A DNA stretch of 64,000 nt from Squalus acanthias (Eukaryota): NCBI GenBank assembly GCA_030390025.1, contig CM059431.1:128218001-128282000 (forward strand), in the 5' to 3' direction. Position 1 is the first letter of the stretch, and every line of letters starts with the position of its first letter. Positions 29,740 to 57,000 of the stretch are shown here, piece after piece. The notes below the pieces were generated by a model. The model was not told the origin of the DNA. It worked only from the letters and a program-made list of their open reading frames with translations, and ran no database searches. The position numbers were made by a program, and so were the translations under genes.

Positions 29740-30783
29740 TAATGTAACCAAGTGTAGCACTTTGATATGTTGTGAGAATAAATGTGACTACTTTTTAGTT
29801 ACCACAACACTCCTGATACAAAAGAACCTTTAAATTACTGAATTAAACTGTTTCACAATGTCAAACTGACAAGAAAGCAATGAAACTCCACTAACCTGAC
29901 AGCTGCGACTCATTTCTCATGATCCCTTTAAATAATGTCCCTGGAGTTGGCATCCACCTGCTTGACAGCTCCTGTCCCTGTCGCTGTTGGGGTGAGTCGC
30001 TAAGGTAGGTGGCGAAAATAAATTTTGCAGATCAGGCGCCCAGTGAGTGTTGCACATTCACTGACATCATGATCTGCCTGGTGTTGAAGTCCCCGGCGGT
30101 ACCTTGTACCGGCGCCGCAACAGGGAGGCCGAATTTGCAGTGCATCGTTGGACCAACCTCGCCCCGGCGCTACTGCATCAGCGTCCCATTACCGCCCTCT
30201 GCAGACGCTCATGGGAGGCGCTAACCAACCAAATTTTTCCCCCAAGGAGTCTAATGATGTTTCAAACATGAGTAAAGAACGTCTTTTGTTTGTCCTTACC
30301 CAATATGATGGTTAACGCACTTCCAGCGGAATTGCGCGCACACTTCCTGCTTGCCATATTGGGGCCTTAGCAGTCCGAGTCGCGCCAAAAAATGGGCACT
30401 GCGCAGGTCAATTTCTCAGCCAGCACCTTTCAAAATGATTAGTTAGAGAGAGAGAGAATTGAGTGATGCTCATCATAAATCTTTGGATGAACTGATGCCT
30501 AATGAACTTATTGGTAGGATGAGGTGCTTTTGCCATCAGGCATTGGTATGAAACTGCCAATAAAGTTTGGCCATCAGGTTCATTCAACAAAGTCTCTATG
30601 AACCTTTTTGTTTGTTCATTTCCTCTACCAGAAGAAAAGGTAAGACAGAGATTGGTGTAAACCTAACACTTTTATTGACAGTTAATCACACAGTAGAGTA
30701 TGCATAAAAAAAACATTAACATGTTAGTAAGTTCCTGTCATTCTGCTGAATAGCTAAGAGACACCTGAACAAACTTGAATGTG

Positions 30784-30937
30784 ATGTGGAGATGCCGGTG
30801 TTGGACTGGGGTGGACAAATGTGAGAAGTCGCACAACACCAAGGTTATAGTCCAACAGTTTTATTTGAAATCACAAGCTTTCGGAGCGCTGCTCTTTCAT
30901 CAGGTGAAGTGAACCTGACGAAGGAGCAGCGCTCCGA
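30784..30937 (-). mobile_element. Minimal inverted Penelope-like insertion with two opposed hammerhead cores
   Basis: 13-bp TSD AAACTTGAATGTG (30771-30783 and 30938-30950). CTGATGA..GAAAGCTT on the minus strand (30903-30875) and CTGACGA..GAAA on the plus strand from 30915. Confidence 0.8.
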
Positions 30938-31016
30938 AAACTTGAATGTGGCCTAGTGCTGTTCCTGTACAACGAATCAGACTGATAGAATTAGGAGAGA
31001 CTCTTCCCTCACGGTG

Positions 31017-40503: not shown

Positions 40504-40740
40504 AGTAAGGGTAGAAATTGCGGAGGTGCTGGCCACAATCTTCCAATCCTCCTTAGATAGAGAGGTGATGTCAAAGGACTGGAGGGTTGCAAATTTTACA
40601 CCCTTGTTCAAAAAAGGGGAAAAGGATAAACCTGTCAATTACAGGCCAGTCAGTTTAACGTTGGTGTTGGGGGAGATTTTGAAACAATAATCCGGGAGAA
40701 AAATAACAGCCACTATGATAAGCATGGACTAATAAAGGAG

Positions 40741-41030
40741 AAAATTGAGAGGTCGCACAACACCAGGTTATAGTCCAACAGTTTTATTTGAAATCACAAG
40801 CTTTCGGAGCTATCGATTGCTCCTTCCTCAGGTGAAGTAAATTAGATACAGAATCGCCAAAGCATATATATGCTTTGGCGATTCTGTATCTAATTTACTT
40901 CACCTGAGGAAGGAGCAATCGATAGCTCCGAAAGCTTGTGATTTCAAATAAAACTGTTGGACTATAACCTGGTGTTGTGCGACCTCTCAATTTTGTCCAC
41001 CCCAGTCCAACACCGGCATCTCCGCATCAT
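40741..41030 (+). mobile_element. Penelope-like insertion forming a perfect 254-bp palindrome plus a 36-nt 3' tail
   Basis: 40741-40994 is self-complementary about 40867/40868. TSD GACTAATAAAGGAG at 40727-40740 and 41031-41044. Confidence 0.9.
40900..40941 (+). ncRNA. Minimal type I hammerhead ribozyme motif (mirror copy on minus strand at about 40794-40835)
   Basis: TCAC-CTGAGGA-A-GGAGC(aatcgata)GCTCC-GAAA-GC-TT-GTGA. This has the core boxes, stem II, a palindromic stem III (AGCT) and stem I TCAC/GTGA. Confidence 0.75.
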
Positions 41031-41451
41031 GACTAATAAAGGAGAGCCAGCATGGATTTGTTAAGGGCAAATCATGTTTGACTAACTTGACTGGGTTTTT
41101 TGATGAGGTAACAGAGAGGGTGGATGAGAGCAGTGCAGTTGATGTTGTATATATGGACTTTCAAAAGGCGTTTGATAAAGTACCACATAATAGGCTTTTT
41201 AGCAAAATTGAAGCCCATGGGATAAAAAGGACAGTAGCAGCATGGGTACAAAATTGGCTAAGCGATAGAAAAGAGAGAGTTGTGGTGAATGGCTGTTTTT
41301 TGGACTGGAGAGAGGGAGGTATACAATGGTGTTTTCCAAGGTTCAGTACCAGGACTGCTGCTGTTTTTGATATACATTACTGACTTGGACTTGGGATTAC
41401 AGGGCACAATTTTGAAATTTGCAGATGACATGAAACTTGGATGTATAGTAA

Positions 41452-44080: not shown

Positions 44081-44993
44081 TGAAGAACCTGAGATAGAAT
44101 TTATGACATTGGAATTCTTTCAGAACATTTAAAGGACCAACAATTTGATTATTTTAGTTCAAACACTGATGGGACTTCAGCCCAGATACATTGCCTGAAG
44201 TCCTCCATATTCAACTTTGGTAAGGGAATAGAGTTTCCTTTTAACTCTAGCTATTTTAAAAACTGTCTGAAGAAAATGCATAAATTTACGGGTTTGGGTT
44301 TTTATTCTAGATAGTTTTTTCCAAGTTCAGCATCTCAATCCATTCTTATAGACAAGTCTTTGCTCCCTATGACTTTACCTCCTCAATATCTAAGTAATTT
44401 GTAGTGTGTGCAAGGATTGAAAAGAAAAGCTTTGCTATTGTGCTTTGGCTTAAGTAGTATTTACAGTAGTTATAGGAGCTACTATCCTTCCTTGAAAGAT
44501 AGAAAACAAATAGTGGCACCTGCTGTGCTGAACTGTGATATAAACTAAACCTAGCACAAGGTCCCGGAATAATAACCTTTATGTGATGGTATGTTGCTGA
44601 CCATCCACAGAGTCGCTCTGATTTATCTATCTCTCTAATAGCTTCTGATGGAGTATTCAATTTGAAGAAGACAGATAGAGAAATACGTTTTTAGGAATGA
44701 CCAGGATGATGGAAATTTAAATATCTGTCTCTTGAACTCAGAAACAACTGCCAATCAAAAGGATATATAAATAAGAACCACAATATGCCTGTATTTGAAT
44801 TGAATCATTTTAATGCTCCCTTGGCTATTTGGCCAGCTATAATATTTATTTTTTGTAAGGCTTTTAACCTCATACCTAACATAACAGAAATAAAGAAGCC
44901 AATGGCATGATACATTATGAAAAAAAGATGCTTCCTTACGTCCCTGTAACATTAATTAAAGTGTCTATGAACATACCATGAACATGTATTTTA

Positions 44994-46376
44994 TAAGTCG
45001 CACAACACCAGGTTATAGTCCAACAGTTTTATTTGAAATTACGAGCTTTCGGAGCTCTGCTCCTTCGTCAGGTACAGTGAGGGAATACAAATTGATTACA
45101 AAGTATATATAGACAGAGAACAATGTGTTTGCAGAGATACAATCCGTCAGGGAGGCATTACATCAAAGACACAGCAGAGTACAGCTAAGACAATGAGGTG
45201 GGTCACAGGGGGTCCAACGTGTCAAATGCTGCAGTCTGCAGTTAAGCTTTTTACTTTTAAAAAAAAACTGGAAATCACACCTGTGAACCAGACAACGATG
45301 TCGAGTTACGTTCTGTAGCATGACATGAATCCGAGATCCCGGTTGAGGCCGTCCTCATGGGTGCGACACTTGGCTATCAGTTTTTGCTCGATGATTTTGC
45401 GTTGTCGTGTGTCTCGAAGGCCGCCTTGGAGAACGCTAACCCGCAGATCCGAGGCTGAATGTCCTTGACTGCTGAAGTGTTCCCCAACTGGGAGGTAACA
45501 ATCCTGCCTGGCGATTGTTGCGCGGTGTCCGTTCATACATTGTCTCAGTGTCTGCATGGTCTCACCGATGTACCATGCCGCGATGCATTCTTTCCTGCAA
45601 CATATGAGGTAGACAATGTTGGCCAAGTCACGTGAGTATGTGCTAGGTTTAGTTTATATCACAGTTCAGCACAGCAGGTGCCACTATTTGTTTTCTATCT
45701 TTCAAGGAAGGATAGTAGCTCCTATAACTACTGTAAATACTCATACCGCGGCATGGTACATCGGCGAGACCATGCAGACACTGAGACAACGTATGAACGG
45801 ACACCGCGCAACAATCGCCAGGCAGGATTGTTACCTCCCAGTTGGGGAACACTTCAGCAGTCAAGGACATTCAGCCTCGGATCTGCGGGTTAGCGTTCTC
45901 CAAGGCGGCCTTCGAGACACACGACAACGCAAAATCATCGAGCAAAAACTGATAGCCAAGTTCTGCACCCATGAGGACAGCCTCAACCGGGATCTCGGTT
46001 TCATGTCACGCTACAGAACATGACTCAACATCGTTGTCTTGTTCACAGGTGTGATTTCCAGTTTTTAAAAAAAAGTAAAAAGCTTAACTGCAGACTGCAG
46101 CATTTGACACGTTGGACCCCCTGTGACCCACCTCATTGTCTTAGCTGTACTCTGCTGTGTCTTTGATGTAATGCCTCCCTGACGGATTGTATCTCTGCAG
46201 ACACATTGTTCTCTGTCTATATATACTTTGTAATCGATTTGTATTCCCTCACTGTACCTGACGAGGGAGCAGAGCTCCGAAAGCTCATAATTTCAAATAA
46301 AACTGTTGGACTATAACCTGGTGTTGTGCAACTTCTCATTTTTGTCCACCCCAGTCCAACACCGACATCTCCGCAT
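44994..46376. mobile_element. Penelope-like element: two long inverted arms with GIY-YIG C-terminus and hammerheads
   Basis: TSD CATGTATTTTA (44983-44993 and 46377-46387). Arms at about 44995-45580 and 45746-46335. Hammerhead cores at 45043-45071 (-) and 46258-46286 (+). Confidence 0.9.
45306..45626 (-). pseudogene. GIY-YIG endonuclease fragment of Penelope ORF (mirror copy at 45746-46023 on +)
   Basis: NIVYLICC...WYIGET..LRQ.MNGH...VGEHF...EQKLI...GLNRD. Confidence 0.85.
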
Positions 46377-46574
46377 CATGTATTTTAGAGATCACACAAA
46401 TGTGTCAACTTGGCTCAGCATATTACTATTCCTCTGACTCTGAATATTTAGGCCCACAGTAGAACGTGAGCACACAATCCGACACTTCAGGGAGTGCTGC
46501 ATGGTCGTAGGTGCCATCTTTTGGATGACAAATTAAACTGCCTGTTCATTTGGATGTAAAGATCCAATAGCAAA

Positions 46575-46870
46575 GCAGCATTTATTGCCCACCCTTAGTT
46601 GTCCTGAGAAGATGGTAGCGAGCCTCGTCTTTGAATTACTGCAGTCCTTGTGCTGATGGTGTTCCAATGATGGTGTTAGGTAAGGAATTTCAGGATTTTA
46701 ACCCAACAACAATTAAGGAACAGGGATTTATGTCCAAGTCAGGATGGTATGTGACTTGGAGGGGAACTTGAAGTTGATAGTGCTCCCATGAGACTTCTGA
46801 TCTTTTTGTTCTCGGTGGTAGATGTTGCTTGGCTGAGGGGAACTGTTGAAATAAACTTCCACCACCTTGT
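46575..46870 (-). mobile_element. Old 3' fragment of the tRNA-headed LINE family
   Basis: CAGCATTTATTGCCCACCCTTAG...GACTTGGAGGGGAACTTGAAG is homologous to 4158-4400. Confidence 0.7.
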
Positions 46871-54062: not shown

Positions 54063-57000
54063 TCATCCCGTAGTGTGTCTTCTGTGTGTCTTTGCCTCTC
54101 CTAGTGCTCTATGAGATGCTTCCCCAGTGGCTACAGCGTGGCTGGTGGAAGGTTGCTGACCTTCAGTTGATAAGACTGCAGAGGGCCTTGGAGGACAACC
54201 TCGAACAGCCCTGGACCTAGAAAGCCTGGCTACAGACTGTACCATCTCGGCCTGAGCTGCAGCAGTCTGGGCTGGCTGGCTGATAGGCAACAGCAAGGGC
54301 ACTGGTGGAGTGGCAGGGGTGGGAGCACGAATGATGTCATCCTGAGGGGACAGGAGGACCGTCCTCCATTGAACCACTGCCACTCTCCCAGGGCAGCGCC
54401 TCAGCAATCCTAGTACTGTACTCTGTTGGAGAGAAGATTTCTGGACAGCTGTGATGCCCTGGAAGCTCCTTTGAACAGTGGTTTCCAGAGCCATGATGGC
54501 AGCAGTCTCAGCTTCCATTGCAGCACCAACAGCGGCCACTGTTGGCTGGCCGCTGTTTGTGCTGCAATGGAAGCTGAGACATCGGCCATCAGATGCTGCA
54601 TCATGATTTGTTTCACAGGTGTGCTGTTGAAGGTAGCCACCCATTTCATTTTGGAAAGGATGGACTCCAAACTCTGTGCAAAGGCCTGTGTCAAGTTGGT
54701 GCCCGACTCATTCATTCTCTTTGGGGGGCAATTTTCCCACTGGAGGCGGGATGGAGGCGGGTTTCAGTTTGGGTGGGTTTGAAACCCGCCTCCACTGATA
54801 GGTTTCAAAAATTTGCGATTTCTCCATGATTAGCCACTTGATTTCAGAGGTGTGGGATGCCCTTGCTCAATTAGTGTTTTGGGACTGAAACTTGCCTCTG
54901 TTGACAGGACTTTTCCAGTCTGATTTTATGGCTTCTTGCTCCCTTGGCTCATTCCACAGCATTTCTGCGTCTCCTGCACCACCTCCAACATCTTTTGAGA
55001 AACCACTATGTCCAATTCCAAGGCAAGGGCCTACCCGAGGCTTTCGGATGAGGCGCTGCAAATGTTGTTTGAGGGGGTGACAGCTAGCATGGAGGTGCTC
55101 TTCCACTCATCTCGGAGGAAGAGGCCTGCCAAAGAAACCAAGGCTGTGTGGGTACAGCTGGCAAGGGATATAACCTCCAGATCTGAGTGCAGATTGGGAG
55201 ACTGTTTCTGTGTATTGATGAAATGCCATCCCTGTTGGAAAGCATTAAAATGATTTGAAGCCAAAATGTTGGCATTATGCCATCTGTTATTTCGCCTTTG
55301 GCAGCTCCACATTGTGGGCACCGCCACACTTGCATTGTCAGGTTGGTGGCCTGAGTGAAAGGAGGCCAGAGAGTCATGTCCATTGTCAATGATGTCCTCG
55401 GATGGAGCAAAGGACATGTGCCAACTTGGGCAACTTATGCAAATCTGGCCATGATAAGTTCATCCCTTGCATCGCAGGCAGCCATGTGCTCGCGTGCTGC
55501 CGCTGCCGCTAGTCGATACACCAGTGCTCTGACCTCCTCCTGCTCCTCCTCCTCCTCCTCCTCCTCCTCCTCCTCATCCACATCTGAGGTCCATGCAGAA
55601 AGAAAACAAATGGTTCCCATGCTGCTTGCAGATGCCTCCTTTGGGGAAGCGCTCATTACAAGCGGGGAGAGGGTCTTCCAAGGAGGTCCCACAGTTGATG
55701 GAGTCAAGCTGCAGCACCTCCGACTTTGGAAGGCCTTTTAAAAGTGCTCAGAGACCTTTTAAAGCCAAGGTCTGGCACCTGCAAGCAATCCTTGCTGCAA
55801 TAAACAATGTCTTGTTAGACCTGCAGCAGTGAGGAGGCCACCCACGAGTCAACCCGCCAGGTTTACCTGGCCTAGTTTAGGAGGTGCGTGGATCACACCA
55901 CATGCAGATCTTGCCTCTACACTATCCTTTAAATTATGCGCAGTGTCAATATCTGAGCTGGTGGCTGCGACTGTGAAATCGAGTTATGGTATGTCTTCAT
56001 CTTCACTCTCTTCTTCCTCTTCGTTCACTGCCTGGGCATGTTACAGTTCTTGGGTATCTGAAAGGAAAAAGGGACAAGGGTTGGGTTGTGGTGAGGGGAG
56101 AGGAGAAAGTAATAAATGCATGCTTACACCATCTGCAGCTTCTTTGTCAGAAGAGATCGTGGGATGAGGGAGAAGTGGGATGAGAGAAGGAGGATTAGGC
56201 ATGCGGATACCCTCAGCTTCATTGGCTTCGGCCCCGCCAGTGGCCACGGCCTCAGCAATGGCCCTTCCCATAACAGCCAGCACCATCTCCTCAGTGGGGG
56301 TTAGAACATACAGGTGCACACCTCACCTTCCGGTTATTTCCTGCTGCCTCCAGTTGTGCGCCAACTTCTCCTGCAAAAGAGAGGGAAGTGTGTCAGTGAG
56401 TGTTGTGCAATCTGTGTGGCTGATGTGGCTGTCATGGCTGAATAACTGGCAGTGTGTGCAAGCTATGAGATGTGGGTTTGAGGCTTGCAACAGTGCTAAG
56501 TGTGTGCGGGTGAGGTGAAGCAAATGAATATTAGGTATGAGTTCTGATTGATAGAGATTGTTGGTAGGTGAGTGGTGGGAGTGTGGTGAATTGAGCAGTG
56601 GCTGAGACTAGTGGTGCAGTTGGTAGGATATGGCATTTGACGATGCATTCACTGACCTTGACTACTTGTGTGAGATCATTAAACTTCTTTCTGCACTGCA
56701 TCCATGTTCTTACAGCTATACTCTGGGCATTGACCTCCTCCGCTATCTCTTGCCATTGCCTTCTGAGCCTCCCTGAGGGTACAGGACATCTCTCGTCCAT
56801 TCCAGCTCTTCAAGCAAGACCTCCAGTGCAGCTTCTGAAAAACTTGGTGCCCACGCTCTCCCATGGTCAGCCATTGATGATTGATGCACAGCGCACTATT
56901 CCCAATAATCTCAGCACCTCCAGCAGCCACAATGCACCTCCCATTTAAGAAGTGCAGGCTAGTTTTAAACAGTACTAGGCACTAATGATGCAGGGCTCCC

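Follow-up and report, generated by a model that had tools for sequence, protein, structure and literature searches.

An inverted copy of nearby flanking DNA between the mirror-image arms of a Penelope-like insertion in Squalus acanthias

Results

Structure of the insertion

The window, i.e. the whole 64-kb stretch of DNA analysed here, is free of N and contains two mirror-image arms at 44995-45582 and 45747-46334 that share 96% identity over 588 nt. The left arm extends further to 45638-45641, and the right arm carries a 45-nt extension to 46379. This tail (46335-46379) is missing from the left arm. The left-arm open reading frame is 85% identical to the C-terminus of the shark protein P0001, which carries an RVT_1 domain, and its top named protein matches are from sharks. 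The RT of the insertion itself was lost by truncation. A search with the Pfam GIY-YIG profile gave a weak direct match for the right arm (E 0.038) and none for the left arm. Five residues (C14, C18, H38, H54 and H60) are invariant in 6 of 6 aligned sequences, and the two cysteines lie between the GIY- and YIG-like motifs, an arrangement described as a hallmark of Penelope-like elements (PLEs; PMC8557442). Both arms contain a candidate hammerhead core, CTGACGA followed by a stem and GAAA, while Rfam yielded no matches at E-values up to 1 over 44300-46700. The tail measures 45 nt here and 33 nt in another copy at 40737; the literature gives 30-40 for PLEs. The 5'-truncated mirror arms, the tail on one side only and a target-site duplication (TSD) of 8-13 nt together constitute the architecture of an EN+ PLE insertion. 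Judged by these features, the insertion is a 5'-truncated EN+ Penelope-like element, presumably of the Penelope/Poseidon clade. The coordinates of all features are compiled in Table 1.

Two variants, at 45384 and 45486, are common to both arms in mirrored position and account for less than 1% of the family depth; one of them is a CpG decay. They may stem from the same source RNA, from copying at the fold-back or from later conversion. Several shark gene models include the GIY-YIG piece, namely XRCC5, septin 5a, PPP1R12A-like, FAM210B, CYP2C31-like and FSTL5 isoforms (P0007, P0015, P0017, P0020, P0032, P0041), and represent either exonised PLEs or annotation artefacts.

The unit is bounded by CATGTATTTTA, which occurs at 44983-93 and again at 46377-87. 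CAT also forms the 3' terminus of the element itself, so that the TSD amounts to 8 nt plus a 3-nt overlap; the element copy ending at 41031 likewise ends with CATCAT. The TSD may also be 13 nt long with one substitution at 44994. If this position was once G, the left arm would start with a 3-nt overlap as well. The first-pass annotation had described an 11-bp TSD around the unit, which is correct apart from the 3 of 11 nt that overlap with the element. It had further concluded that the TSD implies a single event. This does not follow, since later additions inside the element fall within the TSD as well, and the TSD can therefore not separate integration-time events from later repair. To the right of the TSD, the sequence at 46388-46399 (GAGATCACACAA) resembles the internal start region of the element read as cDNA (GAGAAGT.GCACAA), which may reflect target-RNA pairing or chance.

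Table 1 Features of the insertion and its surroundings. Coordinates refer to the window.
Feature	Coordinates	Strand	Description
Source of the copy, single-copy host flank	44456..44558	+	37% GC, no CpG; 5 of 101 nt differ in two relatives
ACA, 3-nt microhomology	44556..44558	+	Pairs with terminal TGT of left arm
Left TSD copy, CATGTATTTTA	44983..44993	+	First 3 nt also form the element's 3' terminus; contigs of relatives diverge at 44993
Left PLE arm, untailed	44995..45641	-	Putative GIY-YIG-coding portion 45306-45638; candidate hammerhead core (CTGACGA) 45065-71; stops on native palindrome axis
TGT, entry microhomology	45639..45641	+	Common to family and flank copy; family contigs then read ACCATGTACC
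Net captured flank, inverted	45642..45736	-	95 nt; 103 nt (45639-45741) including both microhomologies
ATACT-CA-TAC	45737..45746	+	5-nt microhomology to element end, then element remnants
Right PLE arm	45745..46379	+	Putative GIY-YIG coding to 46017; candidate hammerhead core 46258-64
Right TSD copy	46377..46387	+	CATGTATTTTA

A single-copy flank segment is inverted between the arms

Comparison of the assembly sequence with itself identified 45639-45741 as the reverse complement of 44456-44558, with 103 of 103 nt identical. The source segment stops 424 nt short of the TSD, on its left side, and is 1080 nt away from the symmetry axis. The initial description of an exact inverted copy of local sequence, originating about 425 bp to the left of the TSD, was thereby confirmed. 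So was its placement between two GIY-YIG arms, both of which code for the GIY-YIG portion at the C-terminus of a PLE protein, and the presence of mirrored junction motifs (TGAGTAT at 45633-39 and ATACTCA at 45737-43). Of the 103 nt, the outermost 3 nt on the left and the outermost 5 nt on the right also match the element, so that 95 nt are net new. The segment, which has a GC content of 37% and is CpG-free, is a real feature of the assembly and probably also of the genome.

Within the 64-kb window, no other match to the 103 nt was better than E 0.2. We further compared the Logan contigs of four of the nine runs containing the flank over 44559-45789, with X3-X6 and X9 left out; contig counts given below refer to the contigs listed, and for X1 and X2, two other individuals of the species, 55% and 97% of the run were covered. 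In 4 of 4 runs, the depth over 45651-45692 is essentially that of one flank contig, which joins 45639 to 44559 on opposite strands. This contig corresponds to the natural source and accounts for the depth, which indicates that the 103 nt are single-copy and excludes a dispersed repeat. In all four runs, the contigs of the PLE family match up to 45641 and then read ACCATGTACC. Hence, the segment is not PLE sequence and does not belong to the PLE consensus. Its earlier characterisation as unique local DNA is in line with both results.

Junctions point to microhomology at both ends of the copy

Read along the plus strand, the insertion has at its centre GTGAGTA-TGT, followed by 95 nt of flank and then by ATACT-CA-TAC-CGCGG. 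The pentanucleotide ATACT occurs both in the flank copy and, mirrored, where the left arm ends; this exit match coincides with the very end of that arm. Among random element-flank joints (200,000 trials), microhomologies of at least 3 nt were found in 5.1% and those of at least 5 nt in 0.46%. The family letter at 45583 is G in more than 99% of the family depth among the contigs, which sets the start of the right arm at 45745. Moreover, the present left arm has CATATG (change at 45602) at a site where the relatives' contigs of the family show CATACG, and homologues have Ile-Arg at this site. The centre letters TAC thus agree with the family state and not with the present left arm. Together, the family G, the relatives' CATACG and the conserved Ile-Arg suggest that 45737-46 is in the ancestral state. 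The centre is therefore old, as its letters predate at least one and probably two changes of the left arm (45583; 45602). The stretch 45737-46 can be read as element sequence with skips of 28 nt (between CTCA repeats) and of 19 nt (between AC repeats).

Both arms come within 2 nt of one point, which is the axis of a native GTAC palindrome, between GT and AC. The left arm (end at 45641) stops on this axis, and the flank copy stands in place of AC exactly where the axis of symmetry would be. The chance of an arm end falling on a native palindrome axis is 25% (4-nt window). This arrangement is what would be left if the insertion had once been a perfect palindrome, with arms of about 645 nt centred on the native GTAC, that was later broken at its axis and repaired. 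A cruciform or hairpin tip would have been cut, and the left end resected over about 1.2 kb and folded back on the flank with the help of these microhomologies before annealing once more to the right arm, after which the spacer and two small deletions would have stabilised the palindrome. That such palindromes arise is illustrated by the copy at 40737-40998 in the window, which is perfect, has a spacer of 0 and is centred on a native ATATAT run, and perfect palindromes in mouse are reviewed as being revised at their centre by asymmetric deletions at a high rate (PMC8701086). That review, however, gives 93% of 118 revisions as deletions and describes the inclusion of a spacer as uncommon. About twice the resection would be needed as well, and the coincidence with the axis has a probability of 25% by chance. 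A homogenisation of the arms from the centre outwards is unsupported: the largest gap free of differences measures 171 nt (P 0.14), and the private changes of the left arm are nearest to the centre. Overall, we regard a later break at the centre as a serious possibility for the origin of the copy, though less likely than not. The variants at 45384 and 45486 lie within this 171-nt tract; given the same P of 0.14, we do not claim gene conversion between the arms.

At 44971-44976, at a distance of 12 nt from the TSD, ACATAC offers a perfect 6-nt partner to the left arm's terminus; it was not used. The ACA that was used pairs with weak energy and is one of 20 such trinucleotides within 1 kb. That a better and closer partner remained unused argues against a snap-back to the nearest match, at whichever time it occurred. 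The entry site permits a longer pairing of 7 of 11 positions, which shares the highest count among the 20 ACA sites but has weak energy and is not claimed.

Age of the copy

The arms differ at 21 ungapped positions, comprising 4 in a shifted T/A run, 10 CpG decays (in both arms) and 7 others. Assuming 6-7 non-CpG changes in 526 nt, the probability of observing no change in the 103 nt is 0.25-0.31. It drops to 0.064 if all 17 arm substitutions are counted, and to 0.02 for a copy dating back to the split from the relatives C and D. The copy is thus younger than this split and could be of the same age as the arms (0.02 versus 0.25-0.31). A capture younger than the arms was considered and is unsupported after CpG correction. 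As repair of a broken centre would probably have followed soon after insertion, no mutation clock distinguishes it from an event during integration.

Contigs of relatives and of other individuals

An empty site in related sharks had been named beforehand as a check, and one is apparent in 2 of 2 relatives compared. In C and D, the flank contig leaves the window sequence at the last base of the TSD with 220 and 221 letters unaligned. Counted from 46388, 220 letters reach 46607, which is 32 nt inside a repeat starting at 46576. Both the exit point and the length, which fits a break in this repeat, suggest an empty site. The flank of the relatives differs from the window at 15 of 433 positions.

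The flank contig of two other individuals of the species (X1, X2) reaches 45016, inside the left arm, so the insertion is present in both. It crosses the source unbroken. Capture junctions were found in 0 of the 2 same-species contig sets (X1 with 55%, X2 with 97% of the run), which consist of simplified contigs and lack cover at the joints. Both the missing junction contigs and the unbroken source count against a capture during integration; the former would follow from a later revision of the centre if X1 and X2 carried another one. They could also result from an assembly error, in which a chimeric read or gap filling put 95 nt of nearby unique sequence at the tip of the hairpin, where the true centre is a different one. 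The proximity of the source and its 100% identity are in line with such an error, and inverted PLE structures are known to trouble assemblies (PMC8557442). Nevertheless, the graph behind Logan contigs is simplified and short contigs are discarded (10.1101/2024.07.30.605881), so that joints of about 60 nt into a very high-copy repeat can vanish. Over 458 nt, X1 and X2 furthermore show 3 and 4 differences to the window, respectively, and are therefore other haplotypes. Microhomology is also present at both joints, the full identity fits the non-CpG age of the arms, and the window has no N. We therefore consider an assembly error improbable.

In contrast to the capture joints, a few centre joints of other copies were present among the contigs listed. 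They contain 1-11 extra letters and in one case a 32-nt insert, which indicates that filler is no rarity at the joints of this PLE family. Scans of metagenomes for further copies gave 0 exact matches and 192 pattern matches, 0 of which were confirmed.

Discussion

A proposed capture by snap-back during integration

It is very probable that the segment arose by templated copying primed from the arm end at the symmetry axis, whether during integration or later. We tentatively favour, with a probability a little short of even, a microhomology-primed and DNA-templated snap-back while the PLE was integrating. By analogy with the anole PLE in vitro, both target strands would have been nicked and each would have primed cDNA, with start sites about 45 nt apart. 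Two start sites could give rise to the tailed right arm and the untailed left arm, and the two antisense cDNAs would need head-to-head joining. Resection of more than 500 nt would expose the flank, where the 3' end of the left cDNA, TGT, could pair with ACA at 44556-58 on its own strand. From there, a DNA polymerase would copy about 100 nt leftwards; the junction is seen in the sequence, and the direction is our reading of it. The new end ATACT would then re-anneal to AGTAT at the end of the left arm and presumably stutter or slip twice via the CTCA and AC repeats. The resulting sense-strand element sequence could base-pair with the cDNA on the right, closing the gap. Synthesis in the opposite direction, with the right cDNA invading at 44456 by 5 nt, yields an identical product. 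In this view, the flank copy is a detour within the fold-back, without function.

Several observations support this explanation. The segment is an exact, inverted, single-copy piece of flank with microhomologies of 3 and 5 nt, and the exit match lies at the left arm's very end. An inverted orientation is expected from a cis fold-back on the resected left end (PMC11724301, PMC7165422). The centre letters are old, and the absence of differences fits the non-CpG age of the arms. Compared to a later break, integration has the advantage of shorter resection and of precedent in other retroelements. On the other hand, the end of the left arm on the native palindrome axis is unpredicted (25% chance), the probability of an unchanged copy is 0.064 with all 17 substitutions, and the source is 424 nt from the TSD compared with within 15 bp for L1 and about 30 bp for Pol theta.

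The first-pass annotation had suggested that the nascent cDNA or the polymerase jumped onto local DNA and folded back. A template switch onto local DNA, followed by a return to the element end, agrees with the microhomologies on either side; a single event is not implied. A related possibility is that the PLE RT jumped to a nascent plus-strand host transcript or to displaced flank DNA and then back to its own RNA. The orientation would suit a plus-strand RNA template for the left cDNA, and PLEs can carry host sequence between pLTRs (PMC3846280). Yet the element has the opposite orientation after the detour, which is impossible for one RT run on sense RNA, and the Adineta captures are, in the accessible part of that study, not traced to the insertion's own flank (PMC3846280). 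Hence, a jump of the RT is very unlikely.

Comparison with known systems

The two-strand initiation assumed for a snap-back during integration has a biochemical basis, as purified PLE protein of the anole cuts both target strands and extends them, using two start sites that are one tail length apart (PMC11167929). Other PLE insertions resemble the present one in their 5'-truncated mirror arms, one-sided tail, TSD and GIY-YIG domain with Cys pair, with the candidate hammerhead core as a further possible parallel (PMC8557442, PMC3846280, PMC11167929). In contrast to this locus, the inverted copy there usually adjoins directly or has a short palindrome at its centre. In Adineta, host DNA was captured between pLTRs and self-priming was proposed for palindromic joints (PMC3846280). 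In listings of the open-licence literature, we found no description of an insertion's own flank being captured at the inversion point of a PLE, and the accessible part of PMC9977147 contains nothing on PLE centres.

Among other retroelements, 22 templated insertions were described in a set of 3,598 L1 insertions, mostly below 250 bp and with templates within 15 bp (10.1101/2024.08.27.596794), and inverted duplications are known from L1 sites (10.1101/2024.12.14.628481). As in L1 templated insertions and twin priming, a local segment of less than 250 bp was copied in, both nicks would prime cDNA, and the microhomology is on a scale of 2 bp. The size of the segment is within the L1 range. The distance is not, with typical templates within 15 bp versus 424 nt here, and the copy lies between overlapping mirror PLE arms. 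For R2, in the PRINT system, snap-back of cDNA on cDNA or nearby rDNA was reported at 5' junctions (PMC11371274), and zebrafish ZfL2-2 carries flank-derived extra nucleotides at its 5' end (PMC4245944). In both, the 3' end of the cDNA primes DNA synthesis on itself or, less often, on the nearby target, much as proposed here; there the product joins the flank, whereas here it joins a second, mirror-image arm of the element.

Repair of DNA breaks offers further parallels. Foldback inverted insertions of 10 to more than 150 bp, involving Pol delta and end joining, form at yeast breaks (PMC11724301). These and the TINS of Pol theta share with our locus the inverted copy of a resected flank, microhomology at both ends and short rounds of re-annealing. 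The locus shows the exact reverse complement of nearby single-copy flank together with microhomology at both joints, which characterises foldback-type, locally templated inverted insertions. The yeast events differ in using a 10-bp inverted repeat adjoining the break. Inverse-repeat TINS of Pol theta differ in tracts that are rarely longer than 10 bp and within about 30 bp of the break (PMC7165422). With 95-103 nt copied from a template 424 nt from the TSD and 1080 nt from the axis, the segment lies outside the range of these TINS (3-30 bp, template within about 30 bp), and only the short CA/TAC steps fit. No polymerase is assigned, as inserts of Pol theta are shorter and closer. From its sequence, the scar would thus be of a type known from L1, R2 and break repair, in a setting, the PLE inversion point, that we did not find in the literature and with an unusually long distance.

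Implications for PLE integration

How PLE insertions are completed and why they are frequently palindromic is a stated open question (PMC11167929, PMC8557442). If the segment is real and was made at integration, a free single-stranded cDNA end coexisted with more than 500 nt of exposed flank. It had been proposed that the locus is a footprint of how inverted PLE ends form, which goes too far because one locus cannot show a general route. One may speculate that PLE mirror arms are generally closed by a DNA-templated fold-back of one cDNA end that anneals to the second cDNA and so fixes the end point of both arms. The locus would then be a misfire, in which the end copied resected flank more than 400 nt away and returned. 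We consider this general scheme unlikely; were it true, flank-derived spacers would be a countable class that maps the resection length at PLE integration. One ancient, functionless event does not settle how PLE hairpins close, but it provides a testable lead. The family is very abundant in sharks, where a genome-wide comparison of spacers is feasible.

Other copies in the window

The window contains two further PLE stumps. The one at 40737-41031 belongs to a related family and forms a perfect palindrome with 131-nt arms, a spacer of 0 and a native ATATAT centre; it has a 33-nt tail and a 15-nt TSD (GACTAATAAAGGAGA). The third stump, at 30771-30950, is in opposite orientation with a 13-nt TSD (AAACTTGAATGTG). 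Compared with the other two copies, its untailed arm stops sooner, by about 50 nt, and shares 3 nt with the TSD. This earlier end indicates that the second start site is not fixed. A 98-nt imperfect palindrome (84%) at 54494-54591 is unrelated to PLEs and possibly represents a small inverted-repeat element.
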